The notes under the pieces were generated by a model. It was not told where the DNA came from and did not search any database. It saw nothing but the letters and a program-made list of their open reading frames with translations. Of a stretch of 64,000 nucleotides of DNA, positions 1-62,252 are shown piece by piece (position 1 is the first letter of the stretch; each line of letters starts with the position of its first letter). This DNA comes from a phage. Location: sequence record OZ336095.1. One strand, written 5' to 3'. Made by a program: the position numbers and the translations under genes.

Positions 1-1602
1 ATGGACTTAAATGCTGTTAAGCAGAAGCGAGTGGAAGATGTTAGGAAAGTCCTAGCTGGAGAGTTGGGGCTTTCTGATGAAGTAAAAGAAATTATTAAAT
101 CATTCGGTAAAGACCCCTCTAAATTCCTTCCAACTCAAATTCTGACTTTATTAAGATACACACCAGACCAAGTTCGCCTTATCTTTAAATTGATGACTGA
201 TAAGAACTATGTAGCCCCTCAGCCGGGTTCTCAAGAGGTCTTTTTAAATACTAATGCTGACTTGGTACTCTATGGTGGTGCTGCTGGTGCTGGTAAGACT
301 GCTGCATTGTTAATGGACTCTTTAAGATTTATTGAAGACCCTAACTATAATGCTGTGTATTTCCGTCGAAACACAACACAGTTACAAGGTGGTTTATGGC
401 CTGCTGCAAAGAAACTATTTGGTAAGTTTGGTGGGATTCCTCACGAGCAGAAAATGACTATCACATTCCCTTCTGGGGCAACTATCAAGTTTACCTACCT
501 AGAACTTGAAAAGCACGCTGAAGGTCATCAGGGTATTGAATACTCAGCTATTTACTTTGACGAAGGTACACACTTCTCTGCTTCACAGATTTCATACCTA
601 CAAACCCGTCTACGTTCTGGTGCTGAAGGCGATTCATACATGAAGATTTCCATGAACCCAGACAGAGACCACTTTATTTACGATTGGGTAGAGCCATTCT
701 TAGATGAAGAAGGCTACCCAGACCCTGAAAAATGTGGTCGTATTCGTTGGTATGTAATGAACGATGGTGTGATGGTTTCTGATTGGGAGAGAGACAAGAT
801 TCTTGAAATGTTCCCCCTTGAGATTCCTCAAACATACACCTTTATTTCTGGTACGATTGATGATAACCCAATCCTTGACTTCTTAGAGCCTAAGTACCGT
901 GGTAAGTTGGAAAACAACACTCCTGTAAACGTTGCAAGACTTCGTTTCGGTAACTGGAAGGCTCGTGCAGAAGGTTCAAACTATTGGCAAAGACAATGGT
1001 GTGAAATTGTTGATTCACTCCCAGAAGATGTATTTGATGTTAGAGCATGGGACTTAGCAGCAACTTTACCATCTGAGATTAACCCTAATCCAGACTGGAC
1101 AGCAGGTGTTAAGATGGGTAAATCTAAAAAAGACGGTTGCTATTATATCATTGATGTAGTAAGATTTAGAGATAGACCCTCTGGAGTCGAAACACAAATT
1201 AATTTGACTGCTGAAAGTGACGGTAAGCGAACTGGTATTTTTATCCCTCAAGACCCAGGCGCTGCTGGTAAATCCTACGCAACATCCCTCATCAGGAAAC
1301 TTGCCGAGAAAGGTTATCGAGCAAGAGCCAAACCAACAAATAAAGATAAAGTTACCCGCTTTGCGGGATTTTCTGCTGCTTCTGAAGCTGGACTTGTAAA
1401 AGTCTTGAGAGGTAGTTGGAATGAAGCTTACTTTCAAGAACTTGAAGGCTTTTGTGGTGACGGTAAAACTAAAGATGACCAAGTGGATGCTACCAGTGAT
1501 GCTTTCAACAGTCTTAACGAAGTTAAATTATTCAAGCCACCATCAATGGGTGCTCACACAGATTTAGTGAGAGGAAACCCATATGAGGGGCTTAGACGTT
1601 GA
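1..1602 (+). CDS. terminase large subunit (ORF begins at window edge; 5' end may be incomplete)
   Basis: 533-aa ORF with Walker A-like 'LYGGAAGAGKTAAL' near N-terminus; lies directly upstream of portal-sized ORF and head genes. Confidence 0.8.
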   Translation: MDLNAVKQKRVEDVRKVLAGELGLSDEVKEIIKSFGKDPSKFLPTQILTLLRYTPDQVRLIFKLMTDKNYVAPQPGSQEVFLNTNADLVLYGGAAGAGKTAALLMDSLRFIEDPNYNAVYFRRNTTQLQGGLWPAAKKLFGKFGGIPHEQKMTITFPSGATIKFTYLELEKHAEGHQGIEYSAIYFDEGTHFSASQISYLQTRLRSGAEGDSYMKISMNPDRDHFIYDWVEPFLDEEGYPDPEKCGRIRWYVMNDGVMVSDWERDKILEMFPLEIPQTYTFISGTIDDNPILDFLEPKYRGKLENNTPVNVARLRFGNWKARAEGSNYWQRQWCEIVDSLPEDVFDVRAWDLAATLPSEINPNPDWTAGVKMGKSKKDGCYYIIDVVRFRDRPSGVETQINLTAESDGKRTGIFIPQDPGAAGKSYATSLIRKLAEKGYRARAKPTNKDKVTRFAGFSAASEAGLVKVLRGSWNEAYFQELEGFCGDGKTKDDQVDATSDAFNSLNEVKLFKPPSMGAHTDLVRGNPYEGLRR

Positions 1603-1618
1603 TAGCTAGGTGAGAAGA

Positions 1619-3085
1619 ATGGCAGATATTACAGAAACACAAGAAAGCTTACCACCATTTAGAATGGGTGAAGTAGGTTCTTTGGGTCTGAAGGTTAAGA
1701 ATGGAAGAATCTATGAAGAACCTCGTCAGGCACTAAGGTTCCCTGAAAGTATTAAAACTTTCCAATTAATGATGCGTGACCCTGCTGTAGCAGCATCTGT
1801 AAATATTATTAAGATGTTTGTCAGAAAAGTCAACTGGAGATTCGTACCTCCAAAGGGAAAAGAGCAAGACCCTAAAATGCTTGAAAGAGCAGACTTCTTT
1901 AATTCTTTAATGGATGACATGGAGCATGATTGGGCAGATTTTATTAATTCTGTAATGTCATTCTGCACTTATGGGTTCTGTGTTAACGAGAAAGTTTATA
2001 AGAAGCGACAGGGTAAAAAAGGAAAGTACCAGTCAAAATTTGATGATGGTCTAATTGGATGGGCTAAATTACCAATCAGAAACCAATCAACACTTGATAA
2101 GTGGTATTTTGACGAAGACTTTAGAAAAGTTACTGGTGTTAGACAGAATCTGAGAAATGTTTCACATATTGCTGGAGCAATTAATCTCGGAGAAAGGCCA
2201 CTAACAAGAAAACTTCCACGAGCTAAATTCATGCTGTTTAAGTATGATGATGAATATGGAAACCCAGAAGGTCGTTCACCATTACTTAATGCCTATGTAC
2301 CGTGGAAGTATAAAGTTCAGATTGAAGAGTACGAAGCCGTTGGTGTTTCAAGAGACTTGGTAGGTATGCCAAAGATTGGTTTACCACCAGATTATCTGGA
2401 TGAAAATGCAGAACCTGAAAAGAAAGCTTTCGTACAATACTGCAAAACTGTTGTTAACGATATGATTGCTAATGATAGAGCAGGTTTAATCTGGCCTAGA
2501 TATATCGACCCAGATACTAAAGAGGATATTTTCGAGTTCTCATTAGTTTCTAGACAGGGTGCTAAAGCATACGATACAGGTTCTATTATTGACAGATATT
2601 CCAAGCAGATTATGATGGCATTTATGTCAGATGTTCTTGCTATGGGTCAGTCAAAATATGGTTCATTCTCTCTTGCAGATTCTAAGACAAGCTTACTAGC
2701 AATGTCGGTAGATATCCTGCTGAAGCAAATTAAGAACGTAATTAACCGTGATTTAGTTGCACAGACTTATGCTCTTAATATGTGGGACGATGAAGAACAT
2801 GTACAAATCACATATGATGATATCGAAACTCCAGACCTTGAAGCAATTGGTTCTTATATCCAGAAGACTGTTGCAGTAGGTGCTTTGGAAGTTGACAAAG
2901 AGCTATCTAACAAGCTTAGAGAGCATATTGGTCTTCCTCCTGCTGATGAGTCTCAACCAGTATCTGAAAAGCTTTCTCCAAATAGCCAAAGCCGCTCAGG
3001 AGATGGTTATAAGACCGCTGGAGAAGGTACTGCAAAGACACCTTCAGCGAAAGACCCAAGCACAGCAAATAAGGCAAATAAATAA
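1619..3085 (+). CDS. portal protein (putative)
   Basis: 489 aa from ATG 1619 (track start 1610 is GTG; ATG 1619 is preceded by GGTGAG); position between terminase and protease/scaffold; synteny call, no motif recognised. Confidence 0.55.
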   Translation: MADITETQESLPPFRMGEVGSLGLKVKNGRIYEEPRQALRFPESIKTFQLMMRDPAVAASVNIIKMFVRKVNWRFVPPKGKEQDPKMLERADFFNSLMDDMEHDWADFINSVMSFCTYGFCVNEKVYKKRQGKKGKYQSKFDDGLIGWAKLPIRNQSTLDKWYFDEDFRKVTGVRQNLRNVSHIAGAINLGERPLTRKLPRAKFMLFKYDDEYGNPEGRSPLLNAYVPWKYKVQIEEYEAVGVSRDLVGMPKIGLPPDYLDENAEPEKKAFVQYCKTVVNDMIANDRAGLIWPRYIDPDTKEDIFEFSLVSRQGAKAYDTGSIIDRYSKQIMMAFMSDVLAMGQSKYGSFSLADSKTSLLAMSVDILLKQIKNVINRDLVAQTYALNMWDDEEHVQITYDDIETPDLEAIGSYIQKTVAVGALEVDKELSNKLREHIGLPPADESQPVSEKLSPNSQSRSGDGYKTAGEGTAKTPSAKDPSTANKANK

Positions 3086-3585
3086 TGGCTGAAGTTATCT
3101 CTATTTCAAATGCTACACGAGTGCATTCGTATAGAGGTGTTCTTATTATCACTGACAAATTATCTGTAGAGGCTGGCTCAAGGGTCAGCCTTTCAGGTTA
3201 TGTAAGTGATGGTGGAACCTCTGACGTTTTCACTATTTGCAGGTTACTTGATGCACCAATGAGTGGAAAACCGTTTATTTTAGGAAATTGTAGTGAAATT
3301 GTTAAAATTCCATTTGACAGTTCATGCCTTTTGGGTGTAAAGTTATATAACTGCGAGAATAAACGTATCAATGTTAATAGCATTGAAGCCGCTTTCATTA
3401 CCCTCGACACTGCATTTCAATCTCCAATGACAGTTAATAAAGAAACAAACAGACTTGAATACATTTTTTCACAAAATGATTACAAAGTACTTGTCAAAGG
3501 CAAAGTATATGATATGATTGTAAATGTGGTAGATGAATCTGGTAACCATTCAACAGTCCTTAAACAAAAAGTAAGGTTTAATTAA
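3085..3585 (+). CDS. hypothetical head-module protein
   Basis: 166-aa ORF, ATG overlaps portal stop (TAATG coupling); no recognisable motif. Confidence 0.4.
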   Translation: MAEVISISNATRVHSYRGVLIITDKLSVEAGSRVSLSGYVSDGGTSDVFTICRLLDAPMSGKPFILGNCSEIVKIPFDSSCLLGVKLYNCENKRINVNSIEAAFITLDTAFQSPMTVNKETNRLEYIFSQNDYKVLVKGKVYDMIVNVVDESGNHSTVLKQKVRFN

Positions 3586-29032: not shown

Positions 29033-30133
29033 TTATTCATAATCCCTAATAACTATCCCTACAGGAAACTGTAAAGAACCCTTACGAGTCATCTTCTGGA
29101 ACTGAACAGTTAAAGGTTTCCCGATAAACTCTTCAGGATGTTCAGCAAGATACTGTTTCTTCTCATGAGTAGTCTTCCATGAGACATCTACAAAGACATT
29201 AGGAAGAGTCTCTACAACGAACTTGCCATGACCACGTTTATCGGTCTTTACACCAGTCACTTTAAACTCTTCAGTGTGCATCTTCTTGTGCTTAATCAAG
29301 AAGTATGAACGGTGACCACACTCGTAGAAAGATTCTTCAGAGATTGAGCGGTACATTGCACCTTCAAACTTAGCTTCAACCCACTTATCATGAGCTTCAT
29401 CAAACTCTTCCCAAGAATTTACACGGATAGTCTGCACAGGAACAACTCTACAGGTATCCCCAAGCTCAACAATGGGTGAGTTATCAATAACTTCACGACG
29501 CTCAGGCCAAGATTTTGAATTGTCACAGATATCATACCAGTAGAATTTAAGAAGGTGACGGTCTGGATTGTCAGCATTCTTAATCATAGATACAATATCT
29601 TCTAAGTCCCAACCATGAGCATAAATCTCTCCATCAAAGTCTTCAACTTGCGGGTGTAATTTAAGCAACAAAAGCAAATCTGGGATTAGTTCTGCTGGAA
29701 CGTTGTAAACAGTATTCTCACGAGAATAAGCCGTGAAACTAACTGAATCATCATCTCTTGAAATTCTACAACGTACACCATCCAGTTTTGGTTGAGCATC
29801 AGCAGGGAACTTCAGATACTTTGCGTGACTAACCTTTGCAGCATCATGAGCAAGCTGTACGCCTACCTTCTCAGTATTCTGTGCAGACTCTTTTGTGTAA
29901 GCATAACCTTTACGGTCAACTTGCTTTTTATACTTAGCAGCAACTTCAAAGAGAGCTTGCTGTTCAGCATTACGCTCATTCTTTTTACCGATGTTCTTAG
30001 GCTCTGCTGTGTACTCTTCAAACATCATCTTGCCATTTTCTTTACCATAGGTTGTGATAACTTTGTCACCTACAGCAACACATGACCAGACGTTGAAGGA
30101 ACCATCTTTATTTTGTTTGTACAGAATTGTCAT
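29033..30133 (-). CDS. ATP-dependent DNA ligase
   Basis: adenylation motif 'KLDGVRC' (KxDGxR); ~366 aa from ATG 30133 with GAGG RBS. Confidence 0.7.
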   Translation of the reverse strand: MTILYKQNKDGSFNVWSCVAVGDKVITTYGKENGKMMFEEYTAEPKNIGKKNERNAEQQALFEVAAKYKKQVDRKGYAYTKESAQNTEKVGVQLAHDAAKVSHAKYLKFPADAQPKLDGVRCRISRDDDSVSFTAYSRENTVYNVPAELIPDLLLLLKLHPQVEDFDGEIYAHGWDLEDIVSMIKNADNPDRHLLKFYWYDICDNSKSWPERREVIDNSPIVELGDTCRVVPVQTIRVNSWEEFDEAHDKWVEAKFEGAMYRSISEESFYECGHRSYFLIKHKKMHTEEFKVTGVKTDKRGHGKFVVETLPNVFVDVSWKTTHEKKQYLAEHPEEFIGKPLTVQFQKMTRKGSLQFPVGIVIRDYE

Positions 30134-30326
30134 TTTTAACCTCTGAGTGATACCAAGTGTTGCAAGCATTACATGCGTAAAGCTCTAAGTCGTTTTTATC
30201 TGGTTTATGGAAACAGTTTGACCCACAACGACACCGGAATAACTTACCATCAACACGAAGAATGAATGTTTCAAGCTCACCATCTTCTGTAAGAACTGCG
30301 TTCTTAAATTTATTATCTTTACCCAT
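30108..30326 (-). CDS. small zinc-finger protein
   Basis: 72 aa with 'CRCGSNC' and 'CNACN' cysteine clusters; RBS GAGAG. Confidence 0.35.
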   Translation of the reverse strand: MGKDNKFKNAVLTEDGELETFILRVDGKLFRCRCGSNCFHKPDKNDLELYACNACNTWYHSEVKNDNSVQTK

Positions 30327-30482: not shown

Positions 30483-30788
30483 TCATTTTCTCTTACCACC
30501 AATTTCCACGTCGATAACTTGAACATCACCAGCAACATCAAACTTATGAATGATGCTTTCCACAGTGTAAGTCCAACCATCAATGCGAACAAGCTCACCT
30601 TCTCGTGGAACTATTGGATTGCGTTGAGCTACAGTTGTAGTGGAGTGAACAACATCATAACGATAGATATAGTTTACTAATACTTCCATCGTAAAAACCT
30701 CACTCAATAACCGTGGTATGTGATTGACCATTTTTGCCATAGCTATAAGATGTTGTTGTTTGAGAGTTTGGGCATCTGACAACAACAA
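30483..30788 (-). CDS. hypothetical protein (start uncertain, possibly ATG 30689)
   Basis: track ORF overlaps the upstream lipoprotein gene; internal ATG at 30689 has TGAGGT RBS. Confidence 0.3.
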   Translation of the reverse strand: MLLSDAQTLKQQHLIAMAKMVNHIPRLLSEVFTMEVLVNYIYRYDVVHSTTTVAQRNPIVPREGELVRIDGWTYTVESIIHKFDVAGDVQVIDVEIGGKRK

Positions 30789-30957
30789 TATCTCTGCTTA
30801 TAGCATCACCATTGAGTTTGTAGATTTTGCAGTCTTGCATCTCTGGAGGGAGGCTGTAAGAAGCATCTTTGTTTTCATAAGATGGGTTGCAGCCAGCCAG
30901 AAAAATTACTCCAAGTGCAACCATTGCTTTCACACAACTCTTAACCTTATTGTTCAC
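30700..30957 (-). CDS. small lipoprotein
   Basis: GTG start with GAGAGG RBS; 'KAMVALGVIFLAGC' signal peptide with lipobox; 85 aa. Confidence 0.5.
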   Translation of the reverse strand: MNNKVKSCVKAMVALGVIFLAGCNPSYENKDASYSLPPEMQDCKIYKLNGDAISRDIVVVRCPNSQTTTSYSYGKNGQSHTTVIE

Positions 30958-31089
30958 GATAGTCTACCTCTCTGTATGTTTTTAAATAGTGAGTGATGAG
31001 TTCTGGTAATTCACTACGTTTAACGTTTGAACGAAGAAGTGTCCAGTCAAAACCTTTACCAACCCTTCCCCAGAGACTGTACATCTTCT

Positions 31090-31323
31090 TCATAGCAACT
31101 CCAGAATATCAATACGTTCACCTTTGAGTACTCCAGTACGGTCTTTTGCAATCTTACCGTCAACGATAAGGATGTGTGTAGACCTTAAAGCGTCGTTGTT
31201 AAAGGTTTTTACGAACTTGCTAGGCATGACTACAATGGACATCTCCTGAATTAACTCTGGAGTGTAGCAGTTATCATGAAGTTGCTGAATAACGTCTGCA
31301 AGTGTCATTTTTGATGTCTCCAA
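31090..31323 (-). CDS. hypothetical protein
   Basis: 77-aa ORF in - strand operon. Confidence 0.3.
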   Translation of the reverse strand: METSKMTLADVIQQLHDNCYTPELIQEMSIVVMPSKFVKTFNNDALRSTHILIVDGKIAKDRTGVLKGERIDILELL

Positions 31324-31520
31324 TATTCAATGTCAATAAGCTCTTGTGCAATGCTTTTCAGATTACCTTTCAAGAAAACCTTCTCAGAACCTGAAAGAGA
31401 TGAATTATCAATTAGCCTGTTCATTCTCTCAAACAACTTCTGCTTACGATTCTTGATGGTTTCCTTTGAAGCACCTTTCATCATTGCTGCATGGGTTCTT
31501 CCACGGTGGCTCATAATCAC
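31305..31520 (-). CDS. hypothetical small basic protein
   Basis: 71-aa ORF upstream-adjacent to polymerase gene. Confidence 0.3.
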   Translation of the reverse strand: MIMSHRGRTHAAMMKGASKETIKNRKQKLFERMNRLIDNSSLSGSEKVFLKGNLKSIAQELIDIEYWRHQK

Positions 31521-31575
31521 TCCTATATAAGATATAGTATAAGGTACTCTTCCATGAGCACCTTGTCAATACTAA

Positions 31576-34275
31576 TTAGTGAACCTCAAGCCAGCTTTTA
31601 CCAACCTTACCAGTACCTATAACAAGTGTTTCTTTCTTAAGACCTAAGTTTTTAGAAGCTTGTCCATAATACCAGTCAGTAACTGCTTTCACTTCTGCCG
31701 TCATACTTTCTGGACATTCCCAACTTGTTTCATCGTGATATGCGCAGAGCAAACGAGCACCAATAGCTGGTTGACGACCATTCAACTTCATCAAACCTTC
31801 GTCAATCATACGACGACAAGCAAGGTTAATTGCCTCATTTTGAATCTGAGCCTCTGAACCCATCAAAAGATAGTTCAACAGTTTGTGTGGAGATTTACAC
31901 CACAACCAAGCTCCAGCAACCTTTACAAAACCCCCTTTAGAGATTGCAGCAGTCTTACCAAACACCTCTTCAAGTGCCTTCTTAGTTGCTTTGTAGTCAG
32001 CTTCCAAGTTATCTAGCAACTTCTTAATTTTAGGCAAACGCACAAAGTAAGTCTGTTTAGTTAATGCACCTTCCTGAGTAGTGGCTGCCTTAATAGTTTT
32101 AGCAAACTTTTCATCACCTGCACCGAACAGTAGTGCATAGATACCATTCTTAGCTTTCTTACGACCTTTGCTAATCTCATGAAGAAGATTCTCATCCTGA
32201 GTAGCTCGACAAGTCAAGATATCCTGCTCATCATTCAAGCTAAAGTAAATACTGTTCAGTGTATGTGCATCAGTCCCTGAATAGACAACGTACAGGTCAT
32301 TCTCAGAGTCATAGCGAAGGTACTTATCAATCTCTGGGTTTAGGTACTCATCAAAATGTTTGCAGTAATAGCGTCCATCTTCTTGACGAATAAACTCAAT
32401 CTCTTCTTTACCTTGCGTTACCGCTTTGGTGAAGTCTTTGTCACCCATAAAGTTACAAAGGAGAACTAGCTGAGCTGAGTTCATGTCTACAGAGACAACA
32501 TTAGTACCTTCTTCACAAATCCACACTGCCCTCATTGGTTCCCCATAGACGGCAGCACCAGACGGTACGTTTACAATACCATATTGTGTCATACGTCCAG
32601 TTGAAGTACCAAATACCATTGCACCAGCACTAAGGCGACCATCAGGACGAATCTGGTTCAACCAACCTTTTTCATCATCCTTTGAGTTCTCAATAGTTCT
32701 GCGTCTGTGCATCAAAGTGTAGTACTTAGCAATCTTCTGTCCAAGCTCACCTTCAATCGTATCATAAGATGATTCAGTAAGTTTTGGTGAAGTACGGATT
32801 AAGCAAGGCTCAAGCAAATCTGTGTATTTCTTCACAGACCAGTTATGCTCAATGTACTGTACACCTTCATGCTCAACATAGCTCAAACCACACCGCTCAA
32901 TCATTTCCTGCCACTTAGGATGTTTTGTAATCATCTTTTTATTGTCTTTGAAACGACAAACTTTGACAGGGCGACCATCTGAGTCTTTCTTGTAGTTCCA
33001 GTCATCTGGAATCCAACCAACTGATTTCAAGTAGTCTTTAACAACTGCTACCTGAGTCATACGAGAAACTTCAAACTCAATTGGTGTATATGGTGCATCA
33101 ATCAAACCTGTGTAGCGACTTGACTCAAGTTCAAAGTGGTTAACAACGTGACTGTTATAGTACTTCACAGTTTTGACTGTTTTTACTGGCTTCCAGTCTT
33201 TGCATTTCTTGCCAATCTTTGCATTCAACTCATTGCAAATTGCACGAGCATCCTTCATTGCTACAAAACCTTCCTTGTACTCTTCACCAGTTACAGAGTT
33301 GGTTGGTGTATAGCAATTTCTCTTTTCAATGTTGAAAATCTTTGTAGTTGGCTTACCAAATGGCTTGATTTCATATGTCTGCATCTCACCGTTACGTACC
33401 TGCTGACGATACTTTGTCTTAGGGTACTTGGTAATTCTCTTCAGTCCATCTGCATGACCGAATGTTTCAACATACTCATTCCAAGCTTTTGCAAACTCTT
33501 CTCCAGTGACTTTACCTTTGGTCTTAATAGTTGGAGGTAGATGTGGTTCAACCTCTGAAGCAAGTTCATTAGTCAATTTGTCAAGCTCCTTTACATGGAA
33601 CTCCATAAGCTCCTTATCAGCTTTCCAACCATTGATAGCTTGTTGGCTCATCCAGAAAGATGTCTCTTTAGCTCGCATGTAAGTTTCATAAGTGTCTATA
33701 CCACACTTCTTAAGCTTGAGATACTCGTTATCAAGTGCCCGTTTAGTTTTGGCGTTAATACGGATATCTTCTACAACACGAGTGAAGATTTCTGCATTCC
33801 ATACACCCCAATGCTCAATCTCTGGTTTACGAACACCAACACGAGCACCCCATGCAGCCAAACCATGAGCACCTTTATAACCCTTTGGAGTTGGTCTATC
33901 CATCCACTGAACACGAGACTGAATAAGAGAATCCTGAAAGAAATTACTCCACGGCTTACATTTTGGATTATCAAAGTTCCATAAATCCGGTGCAATGTGA
34001 TTGAAGACCCACCAGTCATAACCGAGGCCGTTATGGATACAAAGTCGTTTTGCCTTTAACGCAAACTCAACACCTTCACGTAAACCACCCTTAATGTACT
34101 TAGTGTACTTGTGACCGAGGATAGGCTCATCTGTAAAGACCCATACAGGTGGCTCTTCATCGTCAGATTTATAGTCTGCAAAGGCCATTACGTGAACTTT
34201 AGTGAACTCAAGGAGTAAACCATCAGTTTCTGTATCACCAACCAAATGTAAGTTTTTAAAATCTACGTTTTCCAT
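31576..34275 (-). CDS. DNA polymerase, family A, with 3'-5' exonuclease domain
   Basis: Exo motif 'VGDTETDGL'; polymerase motifs 'DMNSAQLVLL', 'KNGIYALLFGAGDEK', 'YHDETSWEC'; start taken at ATG 34275 with AGGGAG RBS (track start 34305). Confidence 0.85.
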   Translation of the reverse strand: MENVDFKNLHLVGDTETDGLLLEFTKVHVMAFADYKSDDEEPPVWVFTDEPILGHKYTKYIKGGLREGVEFALKAKRLCIHNGLGYDWWVFNHIAPDLWNFDNPKCKPWSNFFQDSLIQSRVQWMDRPTPKGYKGAHGLAAWGARVGVRKPEIEHWGVWNAEIFTRVVEDIRINAKTKRALDNEYLKLKKCGIDTYETYMRAKETSFWMSQQAINGWKADKELMEFHVKELDKLTNELASEVEPHLPPTIKTKGKVTGEEFAKAWNEYVETFGHADGLKRITKYPKTKYRQQVRNGEMQTYEIKPFGKPTTKIFNIEKRNCYTPTNSVTGEEYKEGFVAMKDARAICNELNAKIGKKCKDWKPVKTVKTVKYYNSHVVNHFELESSRYTGLIDAPYTPIEFEVSRMTQVAVVKDYLKSVGWIPDDWNYKKDSDGRPVKVCRFKDNKKMITKHPKWQEMIERCGLSYVEHEGVQYIEHNWSVKKYTDLLEPCLIRTSPKLTESSYDTIEGELGQKIAKYYTLMHRRRTIENSKDDEKGWLNQIRPDGRLSAGAMVFGTSTGRMTQYGIVNVPSGAAVYGEPMRAVWICEEGTNVVSVDMNSAQLVLLCNFMGDKDFTKAVTQGKEEIEFIRQEDGRYYCKHFDEYLNPEIDKYLRYDSENDLYVVYSGTDAHTLNSIYFSLNDEQDILTCRATQDENLLHEISKGRKKAKNGIYALLFGAGDEKFAKTIKAATTQEGALTKQTYFVRLPKIKKLLDNLEADYKATKKALEEVFGKTAAISKGGFVKVAGAWLWCKSPHKLLNYLLMGSEAQIQNEAINLACRRMIDEGLMKLNGRQPAIGARLLCAYHDETSWECPESMTAEVKAVTDWYYGQASKNLGLKKETLVIGTGKVGKSWLEVH

Positions 34276-34305
34276 TTTTACTCCCTCTAAAATCATTAAC
34301 CCCAT

Positions 34306-59992: not shown

Positions 59993-60541
59993 ATGAAGAA
60001 ATTGATTCTAGGTTTGTGCTTAATGTTTACAGCACACTTATCTTATGCAGTTGACTGCCCAGAGCTATCAATTAGCCAAAAAGTAAACATGTTAAAAGCT
60101 TACCAGTATGGTGAGAATAACATGGGTAAAGGTTGGGGTATAACTCTAGCTGCTATAGCCTTACAAGAGTCAGAGTTAGGTCTGAAGGTAGAGAATAAAA
60201 AGACACATGATTATGGTATTTTCCAGAATCACTTGAAGACTGTTGTAAAGCGTAACAAAATTAGCCCTAATGTGGCTAAAAAGAAACTCTTAAAAGATTT
60301 TGACTATGCTGCGAAGGAAACGCACAAAGAACTTGAGTTTTGGACAAAGGTGCATGGTCAGCCAAAGTCAAAGAAGACTTTACAAAAAGTTTTAGCATCA
60401 TATAATGCTGGGTATTCGTACAGAATCCCTAAAGCTAAGAAGTATTCTCAAGATGTCTATAACAACATGAAAGTTATTGCTCAATGTGAATTTGCAACAA
60501 ACATTTCTAAGGTAAATCATGAAAAAATTAAGAAAGTCTGA
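59993..60541 (+). CDS. lytic transglycosylase (SLT domain) with N-terminal signal peptide
   Basis: 'MKKLILGLCLMFTAHLSYA' signal peptide; SLT motifs 'AIALQESELG', 'DYGIFQ', 'ASYNAGY'. Confidence 0.65.
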   Translation: MKKLILGLCLMFTAHLSYAVDCPELSISQKVNMLKAYQYGENNMGKGWGITLAAIALQESELGLKVENKKTHDYGIFQNHLKTVVKRNKISPNVAKKKLLKDFDYAAKETHKELEFWTKVHGQPKSKKTLQKVLASYNAGYSYRIPKAKKYSQDVYNNMKVIAQCEFATNISKVNHEKIKKV

Positions 60542-61741: not shown

Positions 61742-62089
61742 ATGACATTTAAAGAGTTTTGTCAAGCTACTTTCATAATTGTTTTCTTAGTTGGGGCAGG
61801 TGTCTGGGGAGGATACTCTTACAGAGACTACCAAGTTGCTGAAACTGAGCTAAATAATGAGAAACTAATAAGTGTTGCCAAAGATGCTTATCAGGAAGGT
61901 TTAGCCACACTCAGCACCAATTACAAAAATGATTTGAAAGATGTGCTTGCTAAGAATAAGCACACAAAAGAGGTACTAACATATGAAAAAACTAAGCCAG
62001 AGTTTTATAATGTTTGTGTTACTGATAATTATGTCAGGGTGTTCAACGAACAAAGTGAACAGTACATTCAAAAACTCCCAAGTAAGTGA
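61742..62089 (+). CDS. i-spanin-like protein (N-terminal TM + periplasmic coiled coil), tentative
   Basis: 'FIIVFLVGAGVWGGY' TM segment near N-terminus, then charged helical region; overlapped by lipoprotein ORF. Confidence 0.35.
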   Translation: MTFKEFCQATFIIVFLVGAGVWGGYSYRDYQVAETELNNEKLISVAKDAYQEGLATLSTNYKNDLKDVLAKNKHTKEVLTYEKTKPEFYNVCVTDNYVRVFNEQSEQYIQKLPSK

Positions 62090-62252
62090 GAGTGATAAGT
62101 ACACTCAAGAAGATTCAAGATTCACTATCAAAGGTAATACTGGTAGTGATGTGGCAGCAGCCCTTGAGTTCTATCGTGATGGATTTTACCAGTGCACAAT
62201 CAAAGCTAATAACCTTATTGATATGATTTTATTAGGAAATAAACAGCAATGA
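61983..62252 (+). CDS. o-spanin-like lipoprotein, tentative
   Basis: starts inside 61742 ORF in another frame; 'MKKLSQSFIMFVLLIIMSGC' signal peptide with lipobox-like MSGC. Confidence 0.3.
   Translation: MKKLSQSFIMFVLLIIMSGCSTNKVNSTFKNSQVSESDKYTQEDSRFTIKGNTGSDVAAALEFYRDGFYQCTIKANNLIDMILLGNKQQ

Follow-up and report, generated by a model that had tools for sequence, protein, structure and literature searches.

The 64,000-nt stretch of phage DNA analyzed here (record OZ336095.1, referred to below as the window) is that of a Felix O1-type myovirus (Ounavirinae, Felixounavirus), and the open reading frame (ORF) of interest lies on its minus strand at 30700..30957. This ORF, the counterpart of Felix O1 ORF91 and called ORF91 below, is very probably a genuine accessory prolipoprotein gene of a virulent phage and a member of the large, uncharacterized phrog_902/DUF4884 family. 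The gene itself is already known: it is annotated in Felix O1 and is ordinary for Felix O1-type genomes, strongly constrained yet optional. For its product we tentatively propose a periplasmic role during infection, as an exclusion or protection factor that does not depend on the receptor and would resemble T4 Spackle in effect. The parts of the gene that carry the identification are the following.

30700..30957 (-), prolipoprotein ORF of 85 codons plus a TGA stop (30702-30700); Felix O1 ORF91/Felix01p170, phrog_902/DUF4884 family

30955..30957 (-), preferred GTG start, giving a precursor of 85 amino acids (aa); Felix O1 RefSeq annotates the same start

30967..30972 (-), GAGAGG, Shine-Dalgarno-like, 9 nt 5' of the GTG and within the ORF92 coding sequence

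30931..30933 (-), alternative in-frame GTG at codon 9, giving a 77-aa precursor, MKAMVALGVIFLAGC (MKAMVALG...); aligned with the ATG of relatives

30892..30957 (-), signal peptide, residues 1-22, with n-region MNNKVKSCVK, h-region AMVALGVIFL and then A-G; PROSITE PS51257 read directly

30889..30900 (-), lipobox L20-A21-G22-C23, with Cys23 as the predicted lipidated first mature residue and Asn at +2

30703..30891 (-), mature domain, Cys23-Glu85, 63 aa, predicted all-beta with five strands

30829..30831 (-), Cys43 codon, family-invariant; presumed disulfide partner of Cys62

30772..30774 (-), Cys62 codon, in VVRCPNS, family-invariant

Read from the GTG at 30957, the translation opens with MNNKVKSCVKAMVALGVIFLAGC and passes the PROSITE PS51257 rule: two lysines, Lys4 and Lys6, are among the first 7 residues, no charge occurs in residues 13-18, and the lipobox F-L-A-G-C places Cys23 inside the permitted 15-35. 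Its last four residues, L20 to C23, fit [LVI]-[ASTVI]-[GAS]-C and follow the uncharged VALGVIF. An earlier note, made from the sequence without database searches, had described a textbook lipoprotein signal peptide followed by a mature protein of about 60 aa with paired cysteines, and both descriptions hold. The mature part contains exactly two cysteines besides Cys23, and all three are invariant in family alignments of 84 and 147 members. A canonical lipobox is present in 115 of 121 inspected members, and most of the other six have near-lipobox variants. We also scanned the whole window for lipoprotein patterns, taking each possible start of the six frames in turn, and this returned only 3 loci, namely ORF91, an o-spanin and one doubtful ORF. 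This small number, together with the retention of the lipobox in relatives, indicates that the lipobox of ORF91 is more than chance. The doubtful locus is a 64-aa ORF at 1726..1920 (-) with a weak lipobox-like ILGSC and is probably a chance occurrence. From these features we infer that the ORF91 product is lipidated and located at the outer membrane. In E. coli, Asp at +2 causes inner-membrane retention, and from the Asn found at this position one would expect the Lol system to deliver the protein to the outer membrane.

Three starts are conceivable, GTG 30957 (85 aa), GTG 30933 (77 aa), and ATG 30924 (74 aa). Their anti-Shine-Dalgarno duplex energies, computed against the 16S 3' end, are -8.4, -4.3, and -6.0 kcal/mol, respectively, against a window background of -2.8 +/- 2.3 kcal/mol. 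GTG 30957 is favored as the true start because its Shine-Dalgarno pairing is stronger than that of GTG 30933. This agrees with RefSeq and with the earlier note, which had paired the GTG with the GAGAGG site. The same note had remarked that starting at the first ATG would delete the n-region, and this is what we find: the Shine-Dalgarno-like site of ATG 30924 is about 13 nt off, and its product, MVALGVIFLAGC, has its Cys at position 12, lacks any basic residue, and fails the PROSITE rule. A start at GTG 30933 also yields a valid signal peptide (Cys15 with K2), and this codon aligns with the ATG (MWK...) start of the wV8, Tribble, and Moogle-type relatives. In wV8, Tribble, Moogle, and Mordin the protein begins at an ATG, with MWK or MLK followed directly by the h-region. 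Alignment of 30922..30957 with wV8 and Tribble shows that in the Felix O1 subgroup the ancestral ATG has been destroyed by 3-nt and 1-nt indels and that the upstream GTG is now in frame; in wV8 the equivalent GTG is out of the lipoprotein frame, inside the end of the upstream gene. The mature protein would be identical from either GTG after cleavage of the signal peptide.

Gene calls at this locus vary between records. The metagenome gene calls P0002, P0003, and P0006 have upstream sequence fused onto the lipoprotein. In fjerdesal (L002, 3173..3475) and some other GenBank records the lipoprotein gene is unannotated and a longer version of ORF90 is called instead. In the window this longer version would occupy 30483..30788 (-), encoding 101 aa from a TTG start and overlapping the 3' end of the lipoprotein gene, and the call is probably a mis-call.

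The ORF91 product matches phrog_902 at E=2.9e-18 over residues 2-83. In precomputed tables PF16225 (DUF4884) stands unmarked (E<=1e-5) on the 96%-identical protein P0001 and on every listed relative. This match was not reproduced by hmmscan of the supplied Pfam-A, even at E<=10, and the PF16225 model may be absent from or altered in the copy scanned. Pfam and NCBIfam scans of the ORF91 product and six relatives returned nothing meaningful; weak matches to an InsA zinc-ribbon around the CPNS motif fell under the cut-offs and were disregarded. Because both phrog_902 and DUF4884 are entries of unknown function, membership in them is uninformative on mechanism.

The family is nevertheless large and well defined. 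Searching with a 12-member profile gave 451 clusters at 90% identity; with an 84-member profile the yield was 1,214 clusters at 50% identity (E<=1e-3), 688 of those with E<=1e-10. Members are lipoproteins of about 75-90 residues with a Y-x-L-P...D-C...V-V-R-C-P-N-S...G-K signature, which in the mature domain of ORF91 takes the form of the motifs Y-x-L-P-x-E-M/L-x-D-C and V-V-R-C-P-N-S-x-T-x-T ... G-K. Nearly invariant are Pro37, Asp42, Val60, Pro63, Gly74, and Lys75. The ratio of nonsynonymous to synonymous substitution rates (dN/dS), taken over the mature region, comes to 0.05 in the comparison with wV8 and to 0.11 in that with Tribble, and we therefore conclude that the gene is under strong purifying selection. 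In the comparison with Mordin synonymous sites are saturated, with a proportion of synonymous differences (pS) of 0.8 and of nonsynonymous differences (pN) of 0.055.

About 590 cultured-phage records hold a family member. Roughly 290-300 of these records are Vibrio phages, of which the sampled 70E37.1 is a 113-kb Demerecviridae phage. Other carriers belong to Ounavirinae, Vequintavirinae, Obolenskvirus, and Plateaulakevirus, to the Straboviridae of Acinetobacter and Aeromonas (Acj61, Aeh1, phiAS5), and to the jumbo phages (fEgEco12, UB, Serratia BF, Yersinia fHe-Yen9). Members from different phage families and hosts share 30-50% identity along with the invariant motifs. All inspected contexts are early, replication, or nucleotide-metabolism regions of virulent phages, and two database entries under bacterial names are contigs of lytic phages. 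Among eight phage contexts compared there was no conserved neighboring gene. This phage-only spread and the lack of a conserved neighbor suggest that the family behaves as a mobile accessory gene. The residue at +2 is not constant even within Enterobacterales phages: it is Asn in ORF91 and Asp in enterobacterial jumbo and rV5-like phages and in Serratia BF (CDAS, CDQK, CDGS in fEgEco12, LTH01, and BF).

Structure prediction gave a partial picture. AlphaFold2 modeled the full precursor poorly, with a predicted local distance difference test score (pLDDT) of 59. The mature domain, modeled with 147 sequences, reached a mean pLDDT of 71 and a predicted template modeling score (pTM) of 0.48, with five beta-strands. 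A Foldseek search of the PDB with this mature-domain model (pLDDT 71) returned nothing below E=0.6, and neither Llp nor Rtp45 (9RPS) was retrieved, a result to be read against the low model quality (pLDDT 71, pTM 0.48). PDB searches by sequence, in which first the protein alone and then the family profile served as query, found no relative; a match to PqiC was confined to the signal peptide and was rejected. A fold search of BFVD returned family members only, several of them named 'Lipoprotein' in UniProt.

Over the 6 kb surrounding the ORF, the window matches Escherichia phages MET-P1-301 and fjerdesal at 96-98% identity. In Felix O1 RefSeq the gene is Felix01p170 (NP_944949.1), a 258-nt GTG-initiated frame annotated as 'hypothetical protein', and the window's protein is 98.8% identical to it, the sole difference being V/M at the GTG start codon. 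The gene sits in a tightly packed same-strand cluster running from DNA polymerase (31576..34305) through small ORFs to DNA ligase (29033..30169), with which it is probably co-transcribed. Immediately upstream is the following gene.

30947..31093 (-), ORF92 of Felix O1, 48 aa, phrog_2381 (function unknown), ending in an 11-nt overlap with the start of the lipoprotein gene

In the viable Felixounaviruses VpaE1 and BPS17L1, homologs of ORF93 and ORF90 adjoin, with 9 nt between the annotated coding sequences and no trace of ORF92 or ORF91. The regions compared were 1518..1952 in VpaE1 (L022), 1501..1935 in BPS17L1 (L023), and 30700..31093 in the window. About 1/6 of evenly sampled Felix-type records share this gap pattern of about 400 bp. 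ORF92 and ORF91 are gained or lost jointly, as one cassette of about 400 bp. Since VpaE1 and BPS17L1 are viable without the pair, the lipoprotein gene is dispensable and the cassette is accessory. A second polymorphism is found nearby: in Felix O1 (L001, 1889..2392) and several relatives the 3' end of the DNA polymerase gene is accompanied by a gene for an HNH homing endonuclease, which is missing at that place in the window (31520..31576). This difference looks like typical homing-endonuclease polymorphism.

With these observations in hand, the following route to a function can be drawn. Export of the 85-aa precursor would go through Sec; Lgt would then attach diacylglyceryl to Cys23, LspA (signal peptidase II) would remove the signal peptide, and Lnt would acylate the new N-terminus. 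The result would be a beta-rich domain of 63 residues tethered in the periplasm and probably stabilized by a Cys43-Cys62 disulfide. Its binding target would be either a component common to many Gram-negative envelopes or one that incoming phages bring into the periplasm, and the effect would be nearer to that of T4 Spackle than to that of T5 Llp, with the phage's own receptor left unmasked. Since the gene is optional, it would matter in phage competition or progeny survival and not in plaque formation. The linker between the lipid Cys and the domain is about 10 residues, and the presence of Asp in some members and Asn in others at +2 predicts that they reside in different membranes, which suits a periplasmic target better than a single outer-membrane protein. 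Linker length and mixed sorting signals together would thus favor a target in the periplasm. The use of lipopolysaccharide (LPS), the distance from the tail genes, and the conservation of the mature domain across differing hosts suggest that the function is not linked to a receptor.

Acinetobacter phage Acj61 provides a further point of contact with Spackle. Its family member, p058 (L006, 2501..2752), lies directly upstream of a spackle homolog, p057 (2780..3091), which is followed by 61.1 and 61. The p057 gene is not annotated as spackle but matches phrog_1586 at E=9e-17. Its annotated start seems too far upstream, as the signal peptide begins at Met13. We had considered the family member as the positional equivalent of T4 sp in this genome, and rejected this, as Acj61 has its own sp in p057 with the lipoprotein gene upstream of it. 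T4 61.4, in the slot equivalent to Acj61 p058, is not a lipoprotein, and the ORF91 product gave no match to the Spackle profile (phrog_1586).

A bolder version of the proposal is that DUF4884/phrog_902 as a whole comprises widespread receptor-independent periplasmic 'guard' lipoproteins, a lipid-anchored functional analog of T4 Spackle. Such a guard would act on the tail-tip lysozyme, ejection proteins, or DNA conduit of any incoming phage, or would lock a conserved envelope machine. If true, it would provide broad cross-phage exclusion and would explain why the same 60-residue domain occurs in unrelated phages of Enterobacterales, Vibrio, Aeromonas, and Acinetobacter. We regard this generalization as distinctly unlikely to be correct.

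Several points weigh against a receptor-independent exclusion or protection factor. Early expression is deduced solely from the position in the replication-gene cluster, and a scan for promoter and terminator consensus sequences at the locus gave results no better than chance; a literature search found no Felixounavirus transcriptome. The +2 argument carries a sorting rule of E. coli over to the family members, for which it may not hold. Adjacency to spackle is seen in one genome only, Acj61, and since that genome holds both genes it argues against simple redundancy with Sp, while a related role is not established by it. Finally, literature searches found no functional study of any family member and no experimental datum.

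The earlier note had likened the product to small early lipoproteins, such as T5 Llp and Cor, that block the phage's own receptor and so exclude superinfecting phages. Llp and Rtp45 are the characterized non-spanin small lipoproteins of virulent coliphages, and both are exclusion factors (PMC12685063; PMC9586334), a point that also counts in favor of the receptor-independent exclusion proposed above. Known receptor-masking lipoproteins bind protein receptors, LptD for Rtp45 and FhuA for Llp (PMC12685063). A mask of this kind would bind the periplasmic face of an outer-membrane receptor, alter its surface loops allosterically, block sister phages, and protect progeny from debris. The ORF91 product resembles these proteins in size (63 versus 61 mature residues), in its disulfide-capable Cys pair, in the outer-membrane location predicted from Asn at +2, and in its likely early transcription unit, and the known examples do work in this way. 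The resemblance does not extend to the sequence. BLASTP similarity to T5 Llp covers the signal peptide and the first residues beyond it only, and an hhalign comparison with Llp that gives 89% probability with signal peptides included gives 1.6% once everything before the lipid Cys is cut from both alignments, so that the apparent homology was rejected as a signal-peptide effect. The Llp/Cor PHROG, phrog_1119, which T5 Llp itself matches at 1e-19, gave no match for the ORF91 product at E<=1. On these comparisons the product is not homologous to T5 Llp or Cor, and the searches of the PDB by sequence and by fold (model pLDDT 71) missed Llp and Rtp45. Felix O1-type phages are moreover described as LPS-targeting, without a protein receptor (PMC8594841), ORF91 adjoins no tail-fibre or receptor-binding gene and lies between DNA polymerase and ligase, and its mature domain is highly conserved across phages of differing hosts and receptors. 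In the one genome table consulted, that of the T1-like phage Henu8, a Cor-labeled gene adjoins tail-fibre and tail-region genes, and Henu8 reportedly encodes a DUF4884 protein in addition to this separate Cor, as far as the published table goes; the related phage pSf-1 lacks the DUF4884 gene in its genome. The analogy drawn in the earlier note survives only in a loose sense, weakly supported as mechanism and not supported as homology. We consider a receptor mask improbable; superinfection exclusion in a wider sense is possible.

The label 'lytic conversion lipoprotein' has been applied within the family in GenBank. It is carried by the fEgEco12 member g526, which has only a weak match to phrog_1119 (E=9e-4) over residues 1-49, that is, the signal peptide and about 30 residues. 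Two genes downstream of g526, g528 (L003, 3120..3395; phrog_31263) encodes a second, unrelated cysteine-rich lipoprotein, and we found no support for the same label on this gene.

Other exported proteins of the window bear on some of the remaining explanations.

61742..62089 (+), i-spanin, 115 aa, with an N-terminal transmembrane segment; phrog_1152 'Rz-like spanin', E=8e-42

61983..62252 (+), o-spanin, an 89-aa lipoprotein with lipobox MSGC; phrog_456, E=8e-5

59993..60541 (+), Vs.1-like protein, 182 aa, with a cleavable-looking signal peptide (MKKLILGLCLMFTAHLSYA); adjoins the polynucleotide-kinase gene

The two spanin genes overlap, both bear spanin annotations in Shigella phage JK55, and the o-spanin is the only other convincing lipoprotein gene of the window. 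ORF91 shares with Rz1-like o-spanins its small size, predicted outer-membrane anchoring, and cysteines, and T4 is an example of spanin genes placed in an early region, at a distance from the rest of the lysis genes. ORF91 is nevertheless not the o-spanin, as the window has its true spanin pair at 61742..62252; in addition, its neighbors ORF92 and ORF90 have no transmembrane segment, and relatives without ORF91 are viable. We reject the o-spanin identity and would give it almost no weight. The idea that ORF91 is a chance ORF or a non-functional remnant fares just as badly. It could appeal to GenBank records such as fjerdesal that leave the gene unannotated, and to the lack of a curated family in the Pfam and NCBIfam scans, but the low dN/dS (0.05-0.11), the hundreds of homologs that keep the lipobox and the cysteines, and the good Shine-Dalgarno site are incompatible with it, and with this conservation we consider it almost certainly wrong.

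Another possibility is that the lipoprotein modulates envelope homeostasis or the timing of lysis, inhibiting or binding a peptidoglycan-active enzyme and thereby keeping the cell intact until programmed lysis. Its partner might be a host lytic transglycosylase, an amidase activator, the Vs.1-like SLT protein of the phage (59993..60541), or some other conserved envelope machine. A target present throughout the Gammaproteobacteria would explain both the conservation across phage families and the mixture of outer- and inner-membrane signals, and dispensability suits a fine-tuning role. The phage appears to export a muralytic-like protein of its own, the Vs.1-like protein with its signal peptide; the SLT transglycosylase match of this protein is sub-threshold (19.2 bits versus a cut-off of 21.3), and it is homologous to vs.1-labeled genes of T4-like Aeromonas phages and found in about 2,100 phage records. 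These records and the roughly 590 of the lipoprotein differ in their taxon profiles, which indicates that the two are not tightly coupled. The ORF91 gene is also outside the lysis region, and library and fold searches found no similarity to known lysozyme inhibitors or characterized folds. On balance a modulator of this kind seems rather unlikely. Counter-defense, or some other manipulation of the envelope, would have the lipoprotein neutralize a membrane or periplasmic defense of the host or of a prophage, or alter the production of LPS or outer-membrane vesicles. An accessory early-region gene that is horizontally spread and patchy among close relatives is typical of anti-defense and takeover genes. 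No specific evidence points this way, however, and most known defense systems are cytoplasmic, beyond the reach of a periplasmic lipoprotein, so that there is in our view little chance of this explanation being the right one.

Whichever target the proposed periplasmic exclusion or protection factor may have, the family in its entirety is well worth studying by experiment. Small non-spanin lipoproteins are rare among the 'dark matter' genes of phages in having a cellular address that can be read from sequence, and the three characterized examples, Llp, Cor, and Rtp45, are all exclusion factors with instructive structures. DUF4884/phrog_902 is much larger and taxonomically broader than Llp, Cor, and Rtp45, has no assigned function, and is found in phages with diagnostic and biocontrol uses, the relatives of Felix O1. 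The natural presence/absence polymorphism between near-identical Felixounaviruses (VpaE1 and BPS17L1 versus Felix O1 and the phage of the window) is a ready-made experiment. Broad exclusion or an envelope change, if confirmed, would bear on the design of phage cocktails and could reveal a new conserved vulnerability of the envelope; if there is no measurable effect, this is one more conserved accessory ORF.

Four kinds of known small exported phage proteins can be set beside the ORF91 product. Rz1 and other o-spanins are likewise small outer-membrane lipoproteins with cysteines, but they are proline-rich extended chains, whereas ORF91 is neither paired with nor embedded in an i-spanin gene and a folded beta domain is predicted for its product. 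Cor, of the phi80/N15/T1 type, acts on FhuA. Like Rtp45 from phage Rtp, it is an outer-membrane lipoprotein on the periplasmic side that excludes superinfecting phages; unlike what we propose for ORF91, they act on specific receptor proteins, and neither matches the ORF91 product in sequence. T5 Llp is, like the ORF91 product, a small non-essential lipoprotein from a virulent phage; in both, the mature chain has some 60 residues with two cysteines besides the lipidated one, and the outer membrane is the predicted location. The cysteines are differently spaced, at 19 residues in the ORF91 product and 47 in Llp, and Llp blocks the protein receptor FhuA while ORF91 lies among the replication genes of an LPS-using phage. 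T4 Spackle (Sp, gene 61.3), likewise from a virulent myovirus, is also small, exported, periplasmic, early, and non-essential; its action, inhibition of the lysozyme on the incoming tail, does not depend on the receptor. Spackle is a soluble protein with an ordinary signal peptide and is described as helical, whereas the members of the ORF91 family would be lipid-anchored and are predicted to be all-beta.

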